56,553 bases of DNA, taken from positions 1 to 56,553 of IMG/VR virus record IMGVR_UViG_3300022074_000047; one strand, written 5' to 3'. Shown here piece after piece: positions 5,817-33,492 of the stretch (the stretch's first letter is position 1; every line of letters starts with the position of its first letter). This DNA comes from a virus (lineage: Duplodnaviria; Caudoviricetes). A program made the position numbers and the translations under genes. The notes beneath the pieces were generated by a model. The model did no database searches. It was not told the origin of the DNA and saw only the letters and a program-made list of their open reading frames with translations.

Positions 5817-6757
5817 TGGCGACTGAAACACAAACCCAGATTGCGAGAGAGGCCCCAGAAATAGAGGCCTATAAACTTGGTTTACTTGAAAGCGCAAAGA
5901 AACTAGCGGATCAAAGAATAACAGTGCCTAAACAGATGGTTGCGGGTATGTCCGGTCTACAGGACGCCGCGCTAACTGCCGCCTCACCGGCAAGCGGTGG
6001 TATTGGTGGCTATCAACAGTTTATTCAAGGCGCAAAAACAACCATGGACCAAGTACCGGGAATGGTGACAAGTGCTGTAGGTGATGCCGGCACTATGTAT
6101 AGAACAGGGGCCAGTGGTGTAACGGGCGATCAAATGTCTCAGTACATGAACCCTTACCAACAAGCTGTTTTTGATGAGATAAACCGGTCTTTTGATACAC
6201 AATCCGCGCAAGCCGGACTACAGGCCGCGCAAGCCGGTGCGTTTGGGGGCAGTCGAGCAGGCATCCAACAGACCGAAATAGGTAGAAACCGAGCGCAGGC
6301 GTTGGCACAAGCGCAAGCTCAAAACTTTTTACAGGCGCAACAGGCGTCAGAGCGTGAGAGAGCTAGGCAGCTACAGGCCGCACAGGGTATTGGTGCGTTA
6401 GGGCTACAAGGCGCAAGCACTCTTGGACAGCTTGGGGTACAAAGAGCCGGAATCGGTGAGTTAGCACAGCAAAGTGCGTTGAGAGATATACAAACACAGT
6501 TTCAACTTGGTAAACAGCAACAGTTGCAGCAACAGGCTGAGTTGGAAGCAAAGCGTAAGAGCGATATGGCACAGCTTTATGAGCCCTATCAACGTCTTGG
6601 TTTCTTGTCTGATATATACAAAGGGGCTCCAACATCACAAATGACACTATCTCAGGTACAACGTCCCGATGTATCTCCGGCGCAACAGTTGTTTGGTCTG
6701 GGTGTAGCAGGATTGTCCGCGTATGGCGGGGCTAAACAGGCGGGGTTATTCGGATGA
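5816..6757 (+). CDS. DNA transfer/pilot protein (Q/A-rich)
   Basis: 313 aa; YMNPYQQAV, GAFGGSR motifs; hydrophobic C-terminal tail. Confidence 0.65.
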   Translation: MATETQTQIAREAPEIEAYKLGLLESAKKLADQRITVPKQMVAGMSGLQDAALTAASPASGGIGGYQQFIQGAKTTMDQVPGMVTSAVGDAGTMYRTGASGVTGDQMSQYMNPYQQAVFDEINRSFDTQSAQAGLQAAQAGAFGGSRAGIQQTEIGRNRAQALAQAQAQNFLQAQQASERERARQLQAAQGIGALGLQGASTLGQLGVQRAGIGELAQQSALRDIQTQFQLGKQQQLQQQAELEAKRKSDMAQLYEPYQRLGFLSDIYKGAPTSQMTLSQVQRPDVSPAQQLFGLGVAGLSAYGGAKQAGLFG

Positions 6758-9700
6758 GCTCTCCTCCACCAATATTTATGGGCGATATGGACCAGTATAT
6801 GCGCGATAAAGCAAGCTACGAACTTGCTCAAGAACGGCATAGAAATTCCTTACCCTCCTTGGACACCCTTGGGAGTTTCTTTGGAAGAGAAAGACAACCT
6901 ATGGTAGCCACCCCTGCGGTAAACGATATGAGGATGGACGGAATTGGTATGATGCAGGCAGGGCAATCAGGTCCGTTGTCCGGGTTGGGTCAATATTTAA
7001 ACCAAGAGTTAGCACAAGAAAACCAAGGTGAGGTGAACGAATTTATAGGAGAGGTAGGCGATATGGCAAATCAACGATTTGGAGTGGATCTTGGCTCTGT
7101 GGGCCAACGTCCGATGTTTGATGTGGGCAGGCCCGTACAAGCTTATGCAGACGGAGGCGCAGCGTTTCCTGATCTTAGCGGTGACGGCAAGATAACCCAA
7201 AAAGATATACTAATGGGACGCGGTGTAATAGAGAAACAATACGGTGGACCAATAGGTATGGCCCAAGGTGGTGATATATTTGAGGCCGTGACAGGTATAC
7301 CTTTTTCTTCTTTAAATAACTTGCCTCCTGCACAAAGAGAGATCGCTCTACAAAAGTTTGAACAGTATCAGCTTTCTCAAGAAACAGAAAGAGCTATGCA
7401 ACAAGCACAAGCTCTTCAAAAAAACGTAGAGGGTAGAGGAGCACAGTTAGAAGGTCTAAATGAACAAATGCGGTTTTTGGATAGAGGTGTTCAAGATCTA
7501 CAAAACTTTCAAGAAGGGGGAATGGCTATGCCAATGCCGCCACAAGCGCCTCCGATGCCAATGCCTGCACCAGAACAAGCTCCCATGCCTATGGAAGCCC
7601 CACAAGATCAGCTTGATCCAAATGTTGTGCAGAGCGCTCTAGCACAGGCCGCCGGTGGTATAGGAGACTTAGATCAGGCACAGAACTACGAACAGGTTAT
7701 GAACACCATGCGTGGCGATCAGGCCACCCTTGAAGAAAGACGGCAGGAACTAGCCGGAGTTGTCGGGGCGGGTGACGCGGGACAGACACCAGAGTCCGTG
7801 TTGACCTTAGTGCAGCCCGTTATGATGTTGGCAAATGTAGATCAAGGTATTGGTCAGCTTGCACAGCAAGAGATGACGCAACCCATGGAGGGGCCGATGG
7901 CCGGGGGCATAATGTCCACGGTTCCCGAACCGCCGATGACGGAGGCCGGCGGGACTGCTCCCGTAAATTTTAACAAAGGCGGTGAAGTCCGCCCGATACA
8001 ATACCTTGCACCCGGTGGGGTTGCAGGGAATAAACCCTTTGCGAGTCTCAAAGGACAACCCATATCGCCCTTTATTCAGCAAGCTATGGCAGTAAGACAG
8101 CCTTTGTTAAGTGATCCTGCTTCCTTACAACGCCAGAAAGATTTAACTAAAGCACAAATATTATTTGACATTGCAAACACAGCTTTAGCTTTTGCTGCAC
8201 CTATGGAGGGAGAAAGACCCGGGTTGAGTCCGGCGGAAAGATTAGCTATGGCGGCTCGATCAACAAAACTTCCTCAAACTATTGGAGCCCGCGCGCAGGC
8301 TTTAGGCGATAAAGAGGCCGTGCAAGAAGCACAGGATAAGGCAATCATGGCTTCTGCTATAACCTCAGCAGAAACACGATTTGCAACTAAAGAGAAAGCG
8401 GATAGAGATGCTGCCGCTGCGACGGCAAAAGCAGCAGCGGATGCAAAAAAATTAGAAGAAGAAAATGCATTTAAATTAGCTTTTCTCAGAGAAGAAACAG
8501 AACTAGAGAGTAAAAAGAATTTAAAGCTTCAGGCAAATAAGTATGAATTGATTGCTAAAAATGATGTTTTAAATAATCAAATTAAGATTAAGCTTCAAGA
8601 CATGAAAAATGTGCAAAGCGAATCAAATATTAAACTTAAAGGTACATTAGAAGAGGAGTTAGCTAAAAATAATGCGGAAAGAGAAAAAGCTAAAATAGCT
8701 ATCTTAAATGACAATAAAAATGCCCTGTTATCAAAGGAGTTTGAACTTAAAGAAGCGCTTAAGACGGTTACTATAGGTCTTGAAAAAGACGCAAGCCTAG
8801 AATTACAGAATGCAAAATTTGCGCTTGACAAGAAGATAATTAATATTCGTGCTGATATAAAATTAAATGAGTTGGGTTTTAATGCAGAGTTAAATGAAAA
8901 ATCAGACTTAGCAAACCATGAGCGAACGTTACAACGTGATGCGATCAATAATAATTTAAAATCTGAAATAGAAAGTAATAGGCTTGCGCTTGAAAAAAAT
9001 AAATTAGAGCAGAAAACCGCTAATGATAAAGAGTTATTAGAGTTAAAGAAAAAAGAATCAGAGTTAGACGGAAAGAGATTTGAACTTGAAGCTGCGGCAA
9101 GTAAGATGCTTGATGTACCCGGAGAGGATGGAGCTTACGTAACATGGTTATCCAGTAACATAGGTCTAGCAGACGCTTACGCTAATGGCGATACAAACCG
9201 AACACAAAACAATACGATTGAATTAGTTCTTAATAACTTAACCGCCACAAAATCGTCTTGGAGCTCGGCTGACGGAAGTTTTGTAGACAGACCCGGAGGT
9301 CAAATTTCAGAAGATTGGCAAAATGCTATTAACGCAAGAAAAGCAAAGTTTGGAACAAGCCAAAGTTTGCCAAACTCTGCGCTTGAAAAAGAGGTGAATT
9401 TATTACCAAAAATCACGTTTACTGACGACGGTAAGCCCGATTATACAAAGTTTAAAGATAAAGATACCTTTATATTTAATGGAGAAGATTTATCCAAATC
9501 ATTTGGTTTTAATTCTGCTTTTACCCGATTTTTTAATAAAGTAGCCGGTCAAATTAAAGATATATCAGGGTATGGTAGTGGTTACGCCGGCCTTTCCGGT
9601 AAAAATTTATCAAATGCTGATCTAGCTTTGGATAGATTAGCAACAAAAATTATTGCAACCGCAAGAGATGAGTTGAACGGAAGAGTATTTGCCCTTGATC

Positions 9701-10044
9701 TAAATCTTCTACAACAAGATGTAGAAAAATTTACAGGCGCCGCCTTAAAATCAAGTGTGGGCGCCCGTGACGCTCTTATGGCTACAAGAAATAAAATTGC
9801 AATAAGTTATAACAAAGTGATTTCTATGATTAATAATCCAAAAGATTTTTTAAAACCGGATATTACAACAGCAAAACAAAGTAAAGCAGGACTAGAATCA
9901 ATATTAGGTGAACTAACCGGTGCTATAGCTTTATTTGAACGAGGCATAGACGGTAGTGCTGTGGGAGATGCTGAAACGCAAACTTTTCAACAACAACCTA
10001 CGGATAACCAAACTATTTATTTAGATGCAGATCGACCAAGGTAA
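6754..10044 (+). CDS. internal virion/ejection protein, low-complexity N-terminus plus long coiled coil
   Basis: 1096 aa; M/Q/P-rich N-terminal part with six xxxGG motifs and an EF-hand-like DLSGDGKITQKD; K/E/L heptads in the middle. Confidence 0.65.
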   Translation: MSSPPPIFMGDMDQYMRDKASYELAQERHRNSLPSLDTLGSFFGRERQPMVATPAVNDMRMDGIGMMQAGQSGPLSGLGQYLNQELAQENQGEVNEFIGEVGDMANQRFGVDLGSVGQRPMFDVGRPVQAYADGGAAFPDLSGDGKITQKDILMGRGVIEKQYGGPIGMAQGGDIFEAVTGIPFSSLNNLPPAQREIALQKFEQYQLSQETERAMQQAQALQKNVEGRGAQLEGLNEQMRFLDRGVQDLQNFQEGGMAMPMPPQAPPMPMPAPEQAPMPMEAPQDQLDPNVVQSALAQAAGGIGDLDQAQNYEQVMNTMRGDQATLEERRQELAGVVGAGDAGQTPESVLTLVQPVMMLANVDQGIGQLAQQEMTQPMEGPMAGGIMSTVPEPPMTEAGGTAPVNFNKGGEVRPIQYLAPGGVAGNKPFASLKGQPISPFIQQAMAVRQPLLSDPASLQRQKDLTKAQILFDIANTALAFAAPMEGERPGLSPAERLAMAARSTKLPQTIGARAQALGDKEAVQEAQDKAIMASAITSAETRFATKEKADRDAAAATAKAAADAKKLEEENAFKLAFLREETELESKKNLKLQANKYELIAKNDVLNNQIKIKLQDMKNVQSESNIKLKGTLEEELAKNNAEREKAKIAILNDNKNALLSKEFELKEALKTVTIGLEKDASLELQNAKFALDKKIINIRADIKLNELGFNAELNEKSDLANHERTLQRDAINNNLKSEIESNRLALEKNKLEQKTANDKELLELKKKESELDGKRFELEAAASKMLDVPGEDGAYVTWLSSNIGLADAYANGDTNRTQNNTIELVLNNLTATKSSWSSADGSFVDRPGGQISEDWQNAINARKAKFGTSQSLPNSALEKEVNLLPKITFTDDGKPDYTKFKDKDTFIFNGEDLSKSFGFNSAFTRFFNKVAGQIKDISGYGSGYAGLSGKNLSNADLALDRLATKIIATARDELNGRVFALDLNLLQQDVEKFTGAALKSSVGARDALMATRNKIAISYNKVISMINNPKDFLKPDITTAKQSKAGLESILGELTGAIALFERGIDGSAVGDAETQTFQQQPTDNQTIYLDADRPR

Positions 10045-10049
10045 TAATA

Positions 10050-13000
10050 ATGGCTGAAGAAACTCCAACTTTCACTAATCTTAGACCAGATGCCACAATA
10101 GGTATTCAACCTTACATCTTGAGACAAGAAGATGTTGATAAAATAATTAAAACAGAAGCGACTAAGGGGGAAAAAGGGGATGCCCCAAGAGCTTTAGCTA
10201 CGGATTTGGTAAATGTTTTTAGTGCTTCTGATTTTAAGGAAGAAATACAACAAGATCCAAACTTCTTGTCTTACGAGCTGCTTCGATCCGGTAAAGCAAA
10301 AATACTAGATTACATACCGGCGTATGCGGGTAAAAAACCAGTAGATCGTCAACTTACAGACCAAGACATAAACATTCTTTTTTCTAATGCTAAACAGGCG
10401 GATTTTGCTCGACCTTTTTTTACAGAGCTTGCTAAATCAGCACCGGCAACGTATGCAGGAGTAAAAACAGCAGGCATAGTTGGCTCAAGATTAATACCCG
10501 CAGCGGCGGCCTCCGGACCTTTGGCTCCTATTGCCGTCCCTGCGGCGTTTCTTGCAACAGGTGCTGCTTCTCTAGCATCGGCCGGAATAACTTATTATGC
10601 AGGAGAAAAAATTGAAGATGCTTTTTTAGGGCCTAAAGATCCAATAACACCAACCTCTAAAGCGGCACACGAAGCGTATCGCACACTGGGTGCTTTTACA
10701 GGATCTATTTTTGCACCGTGGATGTTTAAGGATACTGTGGATTTAGGTTACAACGCGGCTGTTTCTAAGTTAGCAGAGGGCGCTTCGCCTGCCTTTCAGA
10801 CTAGAATGCTAAAAGTTTTTGAGGATATGATATCTGGAACGGGAACCTTAGCGAAAAAATCACCGATACCATTGGCCGGTGCAGAACTTACGTCAGGAGC
10901 AGGCGCCTCTCTTGGTGCGTATTATTCGGAGTCGATGTTTCCGGGCTCGATAGGTCCTCGTCTATTTAGTGAGTTTTTAGGGGCTAATACCTTTTACTCT
11001 ACCTTTTTACGGGTGGTTCCAAATGCCTTGAAAAATTTACAAAAAACAGACGTTACAGGCGCTATCGTAGATAAATCTCAGGAAAACCTATTTACCAAAA
11101 TAAACGAGACATATAAGCTGTATGGAACCGATGAGGGCTATGATCAACTTATAAGAAATCTAACAGATGAAACGTTTATAAAAGAACTTGAGGATGCTTT
11201 TCCCGGTATCAAGTTTACCGCCGCCCAACAAAGTGGCGATCCACTTATCATGGCTATCGAATCTGTTAAAGCTAAACAAAACCAAACGTTAGATGCCACA
11301 CGAAAACAAAATGCAACCAAAGCAGAAGCGTTTTTATTAGGTTTAACAAAAGCTCTCGAAGATAAAGGCGACGATCAAAGTCTTAAAGCAGCGGCTGAAA
11401 TTAGAGAGTCAATGTTTCAAAATACATTACAAATGTCCTATGAAGAAAAGCTTGAGAATTTTTTAAAAGCTGCGGAAAAATTAAAAGCGCAACCCGGTCA
11501 GGCGGGGTCTAAATCAAAAGCGGACATATCTGTTCAAATGTTTTCTCTCTTAGAGGACACGTTAAACAGTGTTAAAAAGAAAGAAAGCGATTTTTGGGAT
11601 AAGGTTGGGTCGGTGCCCTTGATACAACCTATAGGTCCAAATGCCAAAAGTGATGACTTACCAAATTTTTTAAAAACTTGGAACAAAATTTTACCAAAAG
11701 ACGCAGCGGTACGACAAGATTTTGAGAAAAAAGTTAAGGTTCTTACTGATTTTATTGCAAATGCACGAGAGGATCTTGGTTTAAAACCTTTAGTAAATTT
11801 CACTAAAGAAGAACAAAAAACCATAAATAAGTTTCAAAAAACAGCAGAAAATTTTCAAATAAAATTAGCAGGTTTTGAAGAGGAGAGTGCTTTAAAACAA
11901 GCTCTGCGTGAATCTAAAGGTTTAGATGACGATGCAAAAGTAGACTTTTTTAGAACATACGCTTATAGAAATTTGGGCTTGACCGGAGATGAAGCAACAA
12001 AAGAAGAAAGAATGCTGTTAAGTGCCTTAAACGCTTACGGTGATTTATCGGCATCAAAAGTAACCGCAACGCAACGTGCACGCACTCGAGCACAATCTCC
12101 CTTGGTTGATGCACAAGCTATCTCCGCAGCACGTTTGGTTGAGGTACGATCGACAGCTCTTTCTTTAGCAAGAGGATTTGCAGCAGAACCCTCAACCGCT
12201 CACCTCGCTAAACGAGTAGGTAAGTTTGCTGAAGCTTTGCTTGATGATTTAGATGTTGATGGTTTTGGCGATGCCTACAACACCGCGCGGGCGTTTTCAA
12301 GAGCTAAAAATGATGTTTACACTCGTGCTATACTTGGAAAAGCTTTTCAAAAAGATAAAGCAGGAGGAGAGGTTTTACCTGCCGAGGTTACCTTTGAGTT
12401 GTTTGTAAAAAAGAACCCCTCTTTAACCTTAAACAGACTTAGGCAATTAAACACGTTAAGTGAATTTTTAGATGAGCAAGACATAAAGGTGAGCGAAACA
12501 TTAAGACGCGATACTGATTTTGTTGAGATGGATGATGATGAACCCATATTTACTACCATGAATAAACTAACCGATAATTTCTTACGGCGCATGGAAGAAA
12601 CGGTGGGACGCGAGGTCTTTGATCCCGAAACAGGAACCATGACTCTGGTGTTAGACGCTAACAAATTAGAAAAATTTAAAAAAGACAACGCGCAGGTATT
12701 AGAACAGCTTCCCGGTTTAATTATTGATTTAGACAATGTTGTTTCCGCTAAAAATACCTTAGAAAGCTTTAAGTTTGGACGGAAAAAAGTTTTAGAAGAA
12801 CATAAAAAACAAACTATTTTATCATCTCTTCTTAACGGTGCGTCCCCGACGGTTGCTTTAGCAGAAGCAGTCAATGGGTCAAATCCAGTTAAATCTCTAA
12901 ATCAATATTTTAGTTTAAGCACTGCTCCCAAAGAAACCGCGCAAAAGGTAGGTATAAGTTTACCTCAATTTAAACCTTTCAATGCTGCCGGTAGAAAAGC

Positions 13001-13934
13001 AAAAAACGTTGCAGATGCCGATTTAAATTTAGAAGATATTAATGATGGTTTTAAAAGATCAATCATACAACACGCTCTTATGAAATCGGGAGGTGAGGGA
13101 GACTTTGATATTGAATCTTTTGCTAAAGTTTTGTACGGCCCTCTAAAAAAAGACCCTAATTACTCCCTAATGGATATTGTAAAAACTTACGACATATTTT
13201 CTAAAACAGAGTTTGACAGAATACGTTTGATGACCAGTCAGTTACTTAAAATAAAAGCGGCGGAAAAAGCAGGAAATATAAATGACCCTGATTTCGTAGA
13301 GAAAGCCGGGCCGCTCTTGGGTTTTTATTTTGGTATTGGTGGTTCAGCTCTTGGTACGAAAACGTACCAAACATTAACAGGTGGTGCCGGTGGGCCGGGT
13401 TCAATCACAGCCGCAGGTATTGGTAAAAATGCTGTGACAGATTTTCTTTTGAAAATACCGCAAGTTAAAAATTTAGAAAAAATATCTACAATTTTTCTTG
13501 AGCCTGATACGGTTGCACAACTGTTGAAAAAACCAAAAACAGAACGTGATAAAAAAAGAGTTATAGATACTATTATTGAGAACCTTTCGAAAACATTTGG
13601 CAACATTGCGCGTCAGGGTATTCCTATATCTGTTCCAAAAGTTGGAGAGGCTATTACTCCAGAGGGCGACGCAGAGCGTGAACGATTTTTATTAAAACAA
13701 AGACAATTAGAAGAAATGAAGAAAAAAGGGGCACCTATGATACCACCTAGACAAGGGCCAATTAATCAAAACACGGCTCCTGTCAATCAGAACACGCTAC
13801 CCTCTAATGAGTCTTTAATAAATGTAAATCTTTCCCCGCCTGCGCAAAATCAAAAAGTTGACAGGCGCCGATTTGCTGCTTTATTTCCAGAAGATGCCGA
13901 TTTGATACAAGGAATAGGCAGCTTACGTGCATGA
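10050..13934 (+). CDS. large internal virion/ejection protein
   Basis: 1294 aa, helical composition with hydrophobic A/G segments, last large gene of the ejection cluster. Confidence 0.65.
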   Translation: MAEETPTFTNLRPDATIGIQPYILRQEDVDKIIKTEATKGEKGDAPRALATDLVNVFSASDFKEEIQQDPNFLSYELLRSGKAKILDYIPAYAGKKPVDRQLTDQDINILFSNAKQADFARPFFTELAKSAPATYAGVKTAGIVGSRLIPAAAASGPLAPIAVPAAFLATGAASLASAGITYYAGEKIEDAFLGPKDPITPTSKAAHEAYRTLGAFTGSIFAPWMFKDTVDLGYNAAVSKLAEGASPAFQTRMLKVFEDMISGTGTLAKKSPIPLAGAELTSGAGASLGAYYSESMFPGSIGPRLFSEFLGANTFYSTFLRVVPNALKNLQKTDVTGAIVDKSQENLFTKINETYKLYGTDEGYDQLIRNLTDETFIKELEDAFPGIKFTAAQQSGDPLIMAIESVKAKQNQTLDATRKQNATKAEAFLLGLTKALEDKGDDQSLKAAAEIRESMFQNTLQMSYEEKLENFLKAAEKLKAQPGQAGSKSKADISVQMFSLLEDTLNSVKKKESDFWDKVGSVPLIQPIGPNAKSDDLPNFLKTWNKILPKDAAVRQDFEKKVKVLTDFIANAREDLGLKPLVNFTKEEQKTINKFQKTAENFQIKLAGFEEESALKQALRESKGLDDDAKVDFFRTYAYRNLGLTGDEATKEERMLLSALNAYGDLSASKVTATQRARTRAQSPLVDAQAISAARLVEVRSTALSLARGFAAEPSTAHLAKRVGKFAEALLDDLDVDGFGDAYNTARAFSRAKNDVYTRAILGKAFQKDKAGGEVLPAEVTFELFVKKNPSLTLNRLRQLNTLSEFLDEQDIKVSETLRRDTDFVEMDDDEPIFTTMNKLTDNFLRRMEETVGREVFDPETGTMTLVLDANKLEKFKKDNAQVLEQLPGLIIDLDNVVSAKNTLESFKFGRKKVLEEHKKQTILSSLLNGASPTVALAEAVNGSNPVKSLNQYFSLSTAPKETAQKVGISLPQFKPFNAAGRKAKNVADADLNLEDINDGFKRSIIQHALMKSGGEGDFDIESFAKVLYGPLKKDPNYSLMDIVKTYDIFSKTEFDRIRLMTSQLLKIKAAEKAGNINDPDFVEKAGPLLGFYFGIGGSALGTKTYQTLTGGAGGPGSITAAGIGKNAVTDFLLKIPQVKNLEKISTIFLEPDTVAQLLKKPKTERDKKRVIDTIIENLSKTFGNIARQGIPISVPKVGEAITPEGDAERERFLLKQRQLEEMKKKGAPMIPPRQGPINQNTAPVNQNTLPSNESLINVNLSPPAQNQKVDRRRFAALFPEDADLIQGIGSLRA

Positions 13935-15879: not shown

Positions 15880-16470
15880 ATGGACATAATGAAGAAACTA
15901 AAAGAGGATGCCAATCAGGGCTCCTTATTTTCCAAGCATACGTTAGATAATGAAGACTTATCCACGCTTACTGGATTCGCCGAAGCCATTATTAAGCAAG
16001 ATGCTTTTGTGAAAGAACTAGACGAAAAGCTCAAAGAAGAGAAAAAGAAGCTGTTAAAGATGACGGATGAAGACTTACCCGCATTGATGACAGAAGCTAA
16101 CTCTATGGAGTTTACTCTACTAGACGGATCAAAAGTAACTATAAAGCCACAGTATGGGGCCTCTATCAAGGTAGACAACCGTCCTGCGGCTTATGAATGG
16201 CTAAGGGAGCATGGGCATGACGACATTATTAAAAACACAGTATCTTGTCAGTTTGGACGCGGAGAAGACGATCTTGCATCTTCGTTCAAGGCGTTTGCCG
16301 AAAAGGAAGGCTACGTCCCGAACCAAACCGAAAAGATCGAACCCATGTCACTACGGGCTTTTGTCAAAGAACGTGTTGAAAATGGGGACGAGTTCCCCAT
16401 GGACTTATTTGGGGCGTATGTTGGTCAACGAGCCGTCATTACTAAAGCGAAAGGAGCAAAGAATGGCTGA
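15880..16470 (+). CDS. conserved replication-module protein
   Basis: 196 aa; LPALM..A....FTL.DG..V, AYEWLREHGHDDIIKN pattern common upstream of phage SSBs. Confidence 0.7.
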   Translation: MDIMKKLKEDANQGSLFSKHTLDNEDLSTLTGFAEAIIKQDAFVKELDEKLKEEKKKLLKMTDEDLPALMTEANSMEFTLLDGSKVTIKPQYGASIKVDNRPAAYEWLREHGHDDIIKNTVSCQFGRGEDDLASSFKAFAEKEGYVPNQTEKIEPMSLRAFVKERVENGDEFPMDLFGAYVGQRAVITKAKGAKNG

Positions 16471-30155: not shown

Positions 30156-30341
30156 ATGAATGAAGATCTTTTATCAAAATATTTTTATAAAGAATTTGCG
30201 GAGTATGCCAATTTGGATATTCCGACGTATTCAAAGCTTTTATTGCACGCGGGCGTTGTTGACGCCTTGGCCGATAAAGATATGGAACGTTGCAAGGTTC
30301 TTGTGGATGAATTTAAAAGGGGGGCTAATTATGCGACTTAA
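30156..30341 (+). CDS. early hypothetical protein
   Basis: 61 aa, SD AGGA. Confidence 0.6.
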   Translation: MNEDLLSKYFYKEFAEYANLDIPTYSKLLLHAGVVDALADKDMERCKVLVDEFKRGANYAT

Positions 30342-30555
30342 TAAGATCCAATTAAACGCCTTGAAAAGGTTATACGATAGAGAAAAGCCCGCTTTAAATA
30401 TTTACGTTGCAGGTATTCTTAAAGACCGCGTTTCAATAAGCTTTTTAAATTTTCGGCGGGAATGCTACCCCGAAATTGGCGCCCGTGATACGGCCTTAAT
30501 AGTTCATAGGGGCGTCACGTTTGGAATAGAGCCCGACGGCCATATCCATACATAG
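30331..30555 (+). CDS. early hypothetical protein
   Basis: Start moved to ATG 30331; SFLNFRR...GIEPDGHIHT C-terminal motif seen in small phage early proteins. Confidence 0.65.
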   Translation: MRLNKIQLNALKRLYDREKPALNIYVAGILKDRVSISFLNFRRECYPEIGARDTALIVHRGVTFGIEPDGHIHT

Positions 30556-30576: not shown

Positions 30577-30603
30577 AAGCCCGCTTCGCGCGGGCTTTTT
30601 TTT
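30577..30603 (+). terminator. intrinsic terminator ending the early region
   Basis: AAGCCCGC-TTCGC-GCGGGC plus T8. Confidence 0.85.
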
Positions 30604-30682
30604 GTTCGCTATTTCCAGTTAAATCCGCAACGGCCCGCCGTCCGCGTGCGATCGTAAACCTACGAGCCCCGCGACCCATGGC

Positions 30683-30722
30683 CCGAGATCCGCCGAGATC
30701 CGCCGAGATCCGCCGAGATCCA
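30683..30722. repeat. tandem 10-bp repeat CCGAGATCCG x4
   Basis: Units at 30683, 30693, 30703, 30713 (last ends in A); dispersed copies at 30783 and 30887. Confidence 0.95.
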
Positions 30723-30988
30723 CGGCCCGCGATCCTAGACCCGCCACGTGACGCGGCTGCACCCTTTTTTAAGATCCGCGACCCGAGATCCGCGACGGCT
30801 GCAGCGGATCCGCGAACCATGGCCCCCCGCCCAAGGTTAAAAATTTTCTTCTAGGGGCCCCCGCATATCGGGTCAATTAACGGGGCCCGAGATCCAAAAA
30901 TCGCGATAAAATGACAACGGCCCGGTGTTTTGCAAGCGTTAGCTTGCGCCATGTTTTTCACGAATAATCATACAAAAAATCGTATGAA

Positions 30989-31004
30989 TGTTTCACGTGA
31001 AACA
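30989..31004. promoter_or_regulatory. parS: parS site (chromosomal ParB consensus)
   Basis: TGTTTCACGTGAAACA, exact 16-bp consensus; palindrome extends to 20 bp (30987-31006). Confidence 0.85.
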
Positions 31005-31098
31005 TTGCCTAATTATTGTGCAGAAAAAAGGTTCTTGTTAACTGCCTAAAAAACGTGCATATTATTCGTGTTTGTTAACCATCAACCGAGGTCCGAGA

Positions 31099-31719
31099 AT
31101 GAGGAAGCGCAGAGTAGGCAAAACGGGAATACGCCAAGAGACTCGTGGTCGAAAACCCGCCACCATAAAAACCCCTTTGACACGAAAGCAGGAGCTGTTT
31201 GTCCGCGAGCTTGTCAGCAAGGATGGGCAGATAACTATGCGCGAAGCGGCAGAGAATGCCGGGTATAGTGCAACGAGTGCCCATACGCGAGCGTATGAGT
31301 TAACGAACCAACATATCTCGCCTCATGTGGTTCATGCGATAAGAGAGTACCGTCGTGCTTTGGATGAGAAATATAGTATTACGTTCTCACGACACGTGCG
31401 GGATTTGCAGCGTATTCGGGACGAGGCATTAGCGAATGGTGCGTACTCGGCAGCGGTGCAGGCGGAGTTTCGCCGTGGTATGGCGCAGGGTGATATATAT
31501 GTAAGTAAATCGGAGATACGACACGGGAGCATAGACAGTATGTCTAAGGAAGAAGTTATGAAAGCATTGAAAGAGATAAAGGAGAGTTATGCCCCAGTCA
31601 CAATCGACATCACCCCAGAAGAGGATAACGATAGCCGTGAAGAAGGAGAGCGGCTTTTACAAACAAGTGAAGGAAGCGGCACAGAGAGTAAGTCGAAAGC
31701 TGTCGCTAACGCGAATTGA
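31099..31719 (+). CDS. terS: terminase small subunit
   Basis: LTRKQELFV...AAENAGYS..SA...AYEL HTH signature; upstream of TerL; start taken at ATG 31099. Confidence 0.85.
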   Translation: MRKRRVGKTGIRQETRGRKPATIKTPLTRKQELFVRELVSKDGQITMREAAENAGYSATSAHTRAYELTNQHISPHVVHAIREYRRALDEKYSITFSRHVRDLQRIRDEALANGAYSAAVQAEFRRGMAQGDIYVSKSEIRHGSIDSMSKEEVMKALKEIKESYAPVTIDITPEEDNDSREEGERLLQTSEGSGTESKSKAVANAN

Positions 31720-32047
31720 AAACTGGGTCGGAGCAGGAATCCCAGACGTCTTGCTCTGTGATATCCATGGTTGTTTTCATTTTGTTGAGCTCAAGTTTAC
31801 GACGACGAATAAAGTAGATCTGCGCCCGTCGCAGGTAGCGTGGCTCACGAAACACAAACACGCTTCGTGTTGGATATTAATTAAGAAACAGGCAAAGCCG
31901 TCCGAGCGAGCAGAATTATTTTTGTTTAAGGCGGAAGATGCGATAGATTTGAAGATGGATGGGTTGAAAGATAAGAAGCCGGAGTTTCATTGTATGCAGC
32001 CGTTTCGTTGGGACGATATGTTTTTTAAAATCGCAGGGGCCCCCTGA
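31589..32047 (+). CDS. PD-(D/E)xK nuclease (Holliday junction resolvase/VRR-NUC-like)
   Basis: RIEN...GIPD.....FVELK...LRPSQVAW; true start may be GTG 31637. Confidence 0.8.
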   Translation: MPQSQSTSPQKRITIAVKKESGFYKQVKEAAQRVSRKLSLTRIENWVGAGIPDVLLCDIHGCFHFVELKFTTTNKVDLRPSQVAWLTKHKHASCWILIKKQAKPSERAELFLFKAEDAIDLKMDGLKDKKPEFHCMQPFRWDDMFFKIAGAP

Positions 32048-33492
32048 TGGATGTTTCGGAGCAGGAGGCCAAGCTTACGCTGCGACTGGCACAATTAGAA
32101 AAACACGAAAGGTGTCAGGAAGATTTTTTAATTTTTGTAAAAAATATGTGGCCGGATTTTATTGCCGGTCGGCACCATAAGATTATTGCCGAGAAGTTAG
32201 AGCGTGTGGCCAAGGGCGAGCTGAAGCGTTTGATTATCAATATGGCGCCAAGACATACGAAGTCGGAGTTTGCAAGCTTCTTGTTTCCGGCGTGGATGAT
32301 GGGCCGTAATCCAAAGATGAAGATTATTCAGGCGACGCACACCACGGAGTTGGCCGTGAACTTTGGACGTAAGACCAAGAACCTTATTGATAGTGATGAG
32401 TACAAGGATATCTTTCCGACGGTGAATTTGTCCGCCGACAGTAAAGCATCCGGTCGTTGGGACACGACATCGGGGGGTATGTACTATGCGGTGGGGGTTG
32501 GTTCCAACTTAGCGGGTCGTGGTGGAGACTTGGTGATTATAGATGACCCGCACTCGGAGCAGACGGCGATGTCTAATTCGGGTTTTGATGATGCGTGGGA
32601 CTGGTATACTGGGGGCCCCCGACAGAGACTACAGCCGGGAGGTAGTATTGTTTTGGTACAGACCCGGTGGTCCGAGAAGGATATGACGGGACAGTTGATG
32701 CGTGCGATGGCGAAGGATGAATTAGCGGACCAGTGGGAAGTTGTAGAGTTACCGGCGATCTTTACGGATGGCAGTCCCTGTTGGCCGGAGTTCTGGAGCC
32801 TCGAGGATTTAACGGCGGTGAAGGCGTCGATACCCCCTAGTAAATGGAATGCGCAGTATCAGCAGAATCCGACGGGTGAGGAGAACGCAATTATACCGCG
32901 TGAGTGGTGGCAGAAGTGGGAGAAGGAGAGTATTCCCAATCTGGAGTATGTTATTCAGAGTTACGATACGGCGTTCACGAAGAAGGAGACATCGGACTAT
33001 AGCGCGATTACTACATGGGGTGTTTTTTATCCCGAAGAAGCGGGGGGTCCCCCGGCGTTGATCCTTCTTGATAGTCAGAAGGATAGGTGGGACTTTCCTG
33101 AGTTGAAGCAGGTAGCGTTGGAGCAATATAAGTACTGGGAGCCGGATACGATTATAATAGAGGCGAAGGCGACGGGGCTGCCCTTGACCCACGAACTACG
33201 GAACATGGGTATACCTGTTGTCAACTTTACACCGAGTAAGGGTAATGATAAGGTGACGCGCGTGCACTCTGTATCGGTTCTTTTTGAAGCAGGCATGGTG
33301 TACGCACCAGACACGAAGTTTGCGGATGAGATGATAGAGGAGGTTGCGGCTTTTCCAAATGGGGAGTATGATGACCTTGTGGATAGTATGACACAGGCTT
33401 TGATGCGGTATCGTCAGGGCAACTTTGTGCAGCTACCAAGTGACGATTGGGAAGAAGAGGATAACAACGTGCAAGTAAAAGCGTACTACTGA
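32047..33492 (+). CDS. terL: terminase large subunit
   Basis: APRHTKS Walker A variant, IIDDP Walker B, QTRW, SYDTA, DDLVDS nuclease motifs. Confidence 0.95.
   Translation: MDVSEQEAKLTLRLAQLEKHERCQEDFLIFVKNMWPDFIAGRHHKIIAEKLERVAKGELKRLIINMAPRHTKSEFASFLFPAWMMGRNPKMKIIQATHTTELAVNFGRKTKNLIDSDEYKDIFPTVNLSADSKASGRWDTTSGGMYYAVGVGSNLAGRGGDLVIIDDPHSEQTAMSNSGFDDAWDWYTGGPRQRLQPGGSIVLVQTRWSEKDMTGQLMRAMAKDELADQWEVVELPAIFTDGSPCWPEFWSLEDLTAVKASIPPSKWNAQYQQNPTGEENAIIPREWWQKWEKESIPNLEYVIQSYDTAFTKKETSDYSAITTWGVFYPEEAGGPPALILLDSQKDRWDFPELKQVALEQYKYWEPDTIIIEAKATGLPLTHELRNMGIPVVNFTPSKGNDKVTRVHSVSVLFEAGMVYAPDTKFADEMIEEVAAFPNGEYDDLVDSMTQALMRYRQGNFVQLPSDDWEEEDNNVQVKAYY

Follow-up and report, generated by a model that had tools for sequence, protein, structure and literature searches.

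A ParB dimer recognizes a 16-mer, parS, and closes as a CTP-dependent clamp. ParB shows specific binding to parS, requires CTP for release from the site and slides onto the adjoining DNA (10.1101/816959). The chromosomal parS consensus is given as TGTTTCAC-GTGAAACA (PMC7383237), and a single parS suffices for segregation in P. aeruginosa according to PMC4368675.

The closest phage precedents are phi29 and Nf. The genome of phi29 contains five parS sites that are used through host Spo0J, and Nf likewise has host-type sites (PMC2731898, citing Meijer et al. 2005). These are virulent-looking phages that have a chromosomal-type parS and no ParB of their own, and use of the site by the host ParB homologue is reported there as shown in Bacillus phages. 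In the literature that we found, a host-type parS on a phage without ParB is a known kind, documented for phi29 and Nf only. A related strategy is described for SGI1, an integrative element whose parS mimics hijack the ParABS of IncC helper plasmids (PMC10954446). SGI1 lacks its own ParB, carries copies of parS and uses the ParB of another replicon for its own stability while destabilizing that replicon. In the account of that element, binding and function are shown by experiment, and the mimicked site is a plasmid rather than a chromosomal parS.

P1-type phage-plasmids also have a parS-type centromere on a phage genome, but encode ParA and ParB of their own and have their own site sequence. 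N15 is a further phage-plasmid with a self-contained partition cassette. The ParB of P1 is mentioned in PMC12704722.

Here we analyze a 56,553-nucleotide viral sequence (the window, i.e., the whole stretch of DNA under study) that carries one exact copy of the chromosomal parS. Like phi29 and Nf, it has a host-type parS and no ParB. The phi29 genome is described as linear, protein-primed and 19 kb long, with five sites, and it is entrapped in the spore of its sporulating host. By contrast, the window phage has one site (two in one clade of its relatives), belongs to podoviruses of about 57 kb with PolA and primase, and comes from seawater samples. The several dispersed sites of phi29 have no counterpart in the window, and five-site arrays appear in distant phages only. 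Throughout the window family, parS precedes the packaging genes. The host is probably not a spore-former, and a spore-related use is unlikely. The sequence is identical to that of the chromosomal ParABS centromere, but the window site is on a virus and not beside oriC and parAB, and its reader would come in trans from another replicon. No ParA or ParB of the P1 kind is present in the window. A partial literature search returned no report of an orphan parS in a marine or HTVC023P-type phage, and the main text of the HTVC023P-type genome paper contains neither "parS" nor "ParB".

A single consensus parS in a marine podovirus

The window comprises an entire IMG/VR virus record, which is linear and 97% complete. 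Its TerL is 63% identical to that of Pelagibacter phage HTVC027P and 56% identical to that of HTVC023P, and the phage is a marine podovirus related to the HTVC023P/027P pelagiphages. The public runs that contain window DNA are seawater and viral metagenomes. Nearly all genes lie on one strand and encode virion and ejection proteins, an SNF2 helicase, a primase, a UvrD-type helicase, PolA and a run of small unannotated ORFs. The late block comprises terS, an HNH-like ORF, terL and the portal, holin, endolysin, capsid and adaptor genes. Pfam and PHROGs searches detected no integrase or repressor families among the window ORFs, and tRNA genes are absent from the window. A megablast search of named phages with the 6 kb surrounding parS was negative, and NCBIfam gave no match for seven neighboring proteins. 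Two large proteins of the virion/ejection block, with 1096 aa (6754-10044) and 1294 aa (10050-13934), had no Pfam or PHROG family and share only 22-49% identity between relatives.

Positions 30989-31004 read TGTTTCACGTGAAACA and match the parS consensus TGTTNCACGTGAAACA at 16 of 16 positions. As originally predicted, the 16-mer lies within a perfect 20-bp palindrome, AATGTTTCACGTGAAACATT (30987-31006, inverted repeat I3), and occupies its center. Base composition predicts 1.7e-5 exact matches in the window, which bears out the earlier view that a chance match is very unlikely. A search of all 56,553 b allowing up to three mismatches found no second site. The site is non-coding and was correctly placed by the same prediction in an intergenic region about 95 bp before terS and beside a repeat block: 95 b separate its end from the terS ATG at 31099, which is in frame with an ORF spanning 31072-31719. 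The elements of this region are as follows.

30577..30597, + strand: terminator-like hairpin that ends the upstream gene block (terminator-like call)
~30620..30910, no strand: block of GC-rich short direct repeats with four tandem CCGAGATCCG at 30683-30722 (repeat search)
30949..30968, + strand: conserved box CCATGTTTTTCACGAATAAT, shared by parS-bearing and parS-less relatives, 13 of 20 columns invariant
30987..31006, no strand: perfect 20-bp palindrome around parS (inverted repeat I3; weak RNA hairpin)
30989..31004, no strand: exact consensus chromosomal parS TGTTTCACGTGAAACA (consensus as given in PMC7383237), 16 invariant columns
31006..31022, + strand: TGCCTAATTATTGTGCA, copy of the late-promoter spacer (alignment of the window, L011 and L041)
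31035..31065, + strand: promoter-like element TTGTTAACTG ... GCATATT, family-wide, 14 of 35 columns invariant (consensus match only)
31099..31719, + strand: terS, small terminase (phrog_51; Terminase_2 at E 4.2e-5, below the cut-off)
31589..32047, + strand: HNH/endonuclease-like ORF that travels with terS (phrog_2165, phrog_93)
32047..33492, + strand: terL, large terminase, which opens the conserved late block (phrog_38, 1.5e-107)

The ORF just upstream of parS (30160-30555) occurs in the window only, as judged against the five genomes compared. As RNA, the palindrome would form a weak 8-bp hairpin (-7.1 kcal/mol, z -1.44) without a U-tract, and it is missing from the terminator-like calls for the window. 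No Rfam family reached the gathering score, none lies at the site, and the weak sub-threshold matches all overlap the upstream hairpin at 30577-30597.

The site is conserved and has been placed more than once

We gathered 80 related viral loci via TerL (84-98% identity). The exact 16-mer is present in 55 of them, two carry one mismatch (L029 and L063), 14 lack it and nine are too short to judge. It is therefore found in 55 of the 71 assessable relatives, although such counts overstate the independent observations because the 80 loci include numerous near-copies (44 unique among the 53 sequences with enough flank for alignment). Absence from relatives had been named at the outset as grounds for abandoning the idea, and the survey found the opposite. 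The 14 site-less loci retain their intergenic region.

Among the 35 unique rows of the window type, all 16 parS columns are invariant versus 11 of 30 in the left flank and 6 of 30 in the right flank. In public runs, contigs from co-occurring relatives align to the window over 30984-31024 only and diverge on both sides. The invariant columns amid variable flanks, the retention in most assessable relatives and the enrichment over control palindromes in viral contigs (see below) together indicate that parS is kept by selection and not by chance. The site is dispensable, as 14 of the 71 assessable relatives do without it, including one 100%-complete genome.

The cultured relatives HTVC023P, 023Pt_psg01 and DSL-LC04 have no parS. 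A one-mismatch site with an exact 14-bp core occurs in HTVC027P (16412-16427; L229 1500-1516). It is probably not a functional parS, because the stretch, although annotated as intergenic, forms an open frame that includes a PD-(D/E)XK-like G-x-PD ... ELK motif. The sequence is probably coding, as part of a nuclease gene that lacks annotation.

Three arrangements of parS were distinguished against site-less L041 and L049, which keep the box and the promoter. In the window type, parS arrived in an insertion of about 47 b between the box and the promoter. In a clade of eight rows, the insertion is about 64 b long, lies downstream of the promoter and holds two sites 24 b apart, TGTTCCACGTGGAACA and the consensus, so that parS occupies the place of an operator, flanked by the -10 element and the ribosome site. 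In L022, L078 and L079, parS directly follows the upstream ORF, and neither the box nor that promoter is present. TGTTCCACGTGGAACA differs from the consensus by symmetric changes in both arms, and it is the sequence listed as parS2/parS3 of P. aeruginosa (PMC4368675, Table 1). According to the alignments, parS was acquired on at least two occasions, at differing points within one intergenic region. Because its position relative to the promoter varies by clade, no single regulatory geometry is supported.

Rows without parS occupy at least five positions in a 76-row TerL tree, with the caveat that TerL and the intergenic region may differ in history. L041, L042, L053 and L055 are nested within site-bearing rows, which points to loss of parS there.

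The TGCCTAATTATTGTGCA copy at 31006-31022 is part of the ~47-b insertion that distinguishes parS-bearing from parS-less relatives. The right part of the insertion copies the promoter spacer and the site occupies the TTGTTAAC position of the copy, so we speculate that duplication of the promoter may have given rise to parS. The conserved box (ATGTTT..) and the promoter GTTAAC look like half-arms of parS. By this likeness, the palindrome may be of local origin and readable by whatever protein reads the box and promoter.

CACGTG is the core of parS (30994-30999 in the window) and is listed as the Eco72I site (PMC4368675, Table 1), and restriction avoidance may thereby forbid parS in the clade of site-less G005, G006 and G007 (the contigs behind L049, L067 and L071). 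These three contain zero CACGTG in 58.6, 49.9 and 33.6 kb, respectively, and the control GTGCAC occurs 2, 7 and 0 times in them. Short loci of the same clade have no CACGTG in 57.9 kb, but derive from the same or near-identical contigs and so are not independent. CACGTG numbers 1-10 per record in the 13 site-bearing records and is also found in the L041 clade and L032, which lack parS.

parS tracks the start of the late block rather than terS

In the window clade, the promoter is followed by terS, the HNH-like ORF and then terL. The terS/HNH pair lies 4-5 kb upstream in G001-G004, where parS is found 107-306 b before terL. Complete G005 has parS nowhere at up to one mismatch, yet keeps TerS at 65% identity. 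From these two observations, parS tracks the start of the late block and not terS. A pac or TerS site, expected within or next to terS and tracking it, is not the pattern observed.

The HNH-like ORF adjoins terS in all five genomes compared. The two genes shift together as a cassette, placed directly before terL in the window clade and 4-7 kb upstream in other relatives (G001-G006). In public runs, contigs from co-occurring strains omit this cassette, with joints from 31017 to 32037 and 32125.

Orphan parS in other viral contigs

Exact copies of the 16-mer occur in at least 137 viral contig stretches and the P. aeruginosa-type variant in at least 121, some of which may derive from host sequence flanking a provirus. 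For two control palindromes of matched composition, viral contigs yielded 2 and 4 matches, and the enrichment of the exact 16-mer over these controls is at least 30-fold. ParB_N (E<=0.001) was found in none of the 50 contigs searched among 69 that bear the site, 11 of the 50 being at least 90% complete. The enrichment of two variants in viral contigs without ParB suggests that the phenomenon is general.

Among more distant TerL relatives, parS lies beside terL in L092 (76% identity) and L109 (65%), and L151 (59%) also has the site. Arrays of five exact parS are next to terL in L105 (32%) and L145 (28%). A PHROG scan covered 150 of the 203 ORFs of at least 110 codons in 53 loci outside the family. 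Fourteen of these loci are phi29-like (protein-primed polymerase, phi29-type ATPase or capsid), two are microvirus-like and three are tailed phages with parS just upstream of terS or terL (L113, L117 and L134). Proximity to terminase is not clearly enriched: a terminase match lies within 1.5 kb in 8 of the 53 loci, five of which are phi29-like small genomes.

The small, complete microvirus-like contigs (L090 and L118) encode a replication initiator and a capsid protein and carry an exact parS. The approximately 14 phi29-like contigs (L087, L094, L112, L130 and others) are 10-18 kb long, and several have 2-4 sites and inverted terminal repeats. ParB_N was found in neither group.

Candidate readers of the site

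No ParA or ParB families were detected in 60 window ORFs with Pfam (E<=0.01) or in 46 ORFs with PHROGs (E<=0.001). Six-frame searches for ParB_N and HTH_ParB found neither in the window nor in four near-complete site-bearing relatives. The window had been described as free of parA and parB, with a caveat about its missing segment. The searches uphold the description, and the caveat is addressed by G001, a 100%-complete relative that has parS and lacks both ParB domains. The parA and parB on the same replicon that define a self-encoded ParABS cassette are absent.

We compared window ORFs with site-bearing G001-G003 and site-less G005 and G006. Only an 84-aa ORF of the DUF6378 family is present in all of G001-G003 and in neither G005 nor G006. 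DUF6378 was rejected as the reader, as site-less G007 has it and site-bearing G009 (81% complete) lacks it. No phage gene co-varies with parS.

We interpret the palindrome as a genuine chromosomal-type parS that is under selection and serves as a cis-acting loading site for the ParB of a marine host, with a probability of about 0.7. The sequence identity of the site, its conservation, its repeated placement, the lack of a phage-encoded reader and the viral enrichment all point this way. On comparative grounds, borrowing of host ParB, as in the original prediction, is the best-supported reading. The single parS in the window counts against it.

The palindrome could also be an operator or pac landmark of a phage protein, TerS or an unannotated regulator, that came to match parS by convergence or descent. 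Such a reader is conceivable, since parS is always located in the intergenic region that contains the late promoter and what may be a pac or terminal-repeat block, adjoining the packaging genes. The operator position in one clade, the ATGTTT that the neighboring box has in common with the arms, the many small ORFs without annotation and the DNA-binding N-terminal region of TerS (Terminase_2) fit the same idea. We nevertheless consider it unlikely, given that these genomes encode neither ParB_N nor HTH_ParB, nor any gene that co-varies with the site. TerS in particular persists in a complete site-less genome and is encoded kilobases away from the site in G001-G004. A phage-specific reader would also not explain the identical 16-mer in phages with TerL of 28-32% identity and in phi29-like and microvirus-like contigs, and both variants are natural bacterial parS sequences.

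Another host protein, such as a transcription factor that recognizes a CACGTG-centered palindrome, might drive or repress the late promoter. In the window type, the center of the site is about 73 b upstream of the predicted start, a usual activator position, but this position is not conserved relative to the promoter. The full match to parS and a symmetric variant equal to another known parS fit the specificity of ParB, and we know of no other protein with this site, which leaves this explanation distinctly improbable. A palindrome without a function of its own (chance, hitch-hiking, an RNA hairpin or a terminator) would suit its dispensability in 14 relatives and the 8-bp hairpin that can form, but it is very improbable for a sequence that does not vary although its flanks do, was placed on at least two occasions, exceeds control palindromes at least 30-fold and folds only into a weak hairpin with no U-tract, terminator call or Rfam family at gathering score.

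Hosts and possible uses of the site

TerL relatives were found binned in metagenome-assembled genomes (MAGs) of Verrucomicrobia (2), Planctomycetes (3) and Maricaulis (1), binning being weak evidence of host. All five MAGs searched encode a ParB of canonical size and three of the five have the identical 16-mer on the parB contig, indicating that bacteria of this habitat use exactly this site, without thereby identifying the host. The phage contigs of the window's family that were binned into bacterial MAGs are L219-L223, besides L224. The "chromosome" of L224 (CP070790.1) was rejected as a prophage, because its terL portion is a 222-b fragment next to a run of N and so reflects a scaffolding artefact.

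If the palindrome is a loading site for host ParB, the protein would load on the phage parS and slide over the late promoter and packaging genes. Most likely, host ParA and ParB would then position or transmit the phage genome during a slow or carrier-state infection, as proposed by analogy with phi29 and Spo0J. As a second possibility, multiplying phage DNA would titrate ParB off the host origin, similar to the effect of SGI1 on its helper plasmid. Third, ParB may modulate the adjacent late promoter.

A more far-reaching version takes orphan-parS borrowing of host ParB as a widespread phage strategy, in which the clamp beside the late promoter and terminase of this abundant marine podovirus group does more than partition. 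Its role could be that of a copy-number timer, in which ParB keeps the late operon silent until it is titrated by replicating genomes, or that of a host-supplied landmark or SMC-loading point for packaging. The strategy would be traded off against restriction, the parS-less clade having purged CACGTG from its genomes. We regard this version as rather doubtful.

Loading of host ParB would mean that a common marine phage group exploits the chromosome-segregation machinery of its host. parS would then serve host prediction as a simple cis-marker, as phages of this kind would depend on a host with ParB, and would be an entry point to carrier-state biology in the sea. The natural presence/absence variants with shifted sites are ready-made experimental material.

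Genome ends and a repeated element before terL

The GC-rich repeat block at 30620-30910 is a possible terminal repeat, ori or pac region. In G001 (the contig behind L017), a 301-b direct terminal repeat corresponds to the block homologous to window positions ~30620-30948. It stops exactly at the conserved box, about 60 b ahead of parS. At 301 b it exceeds usual assembly overlaps and may be a real terminal repeat of a linear genome. The terminal repeat of G005 is 77 b long and lies at another place. In the probable source run of the window, contig depth over 30692-31011 is 114 versus ~205-212 alongside, and the doubling expected of a collapsed terminal repeat is thus not supported.

The element AGGGGCCCC has exactly two copies in the window, one intergenic at 30853-30861, before ATATCGGGTC, and one at 32035-32043, directly preceding the terL ATG. 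Nearly all relatives keep the copy before terL (TAGGGGCCCCCnATG), even with terS and the HNH-like ORF inserted upstream. This element may combine a ribosome site with a palindrome that acts as an operator or cleavage signal.
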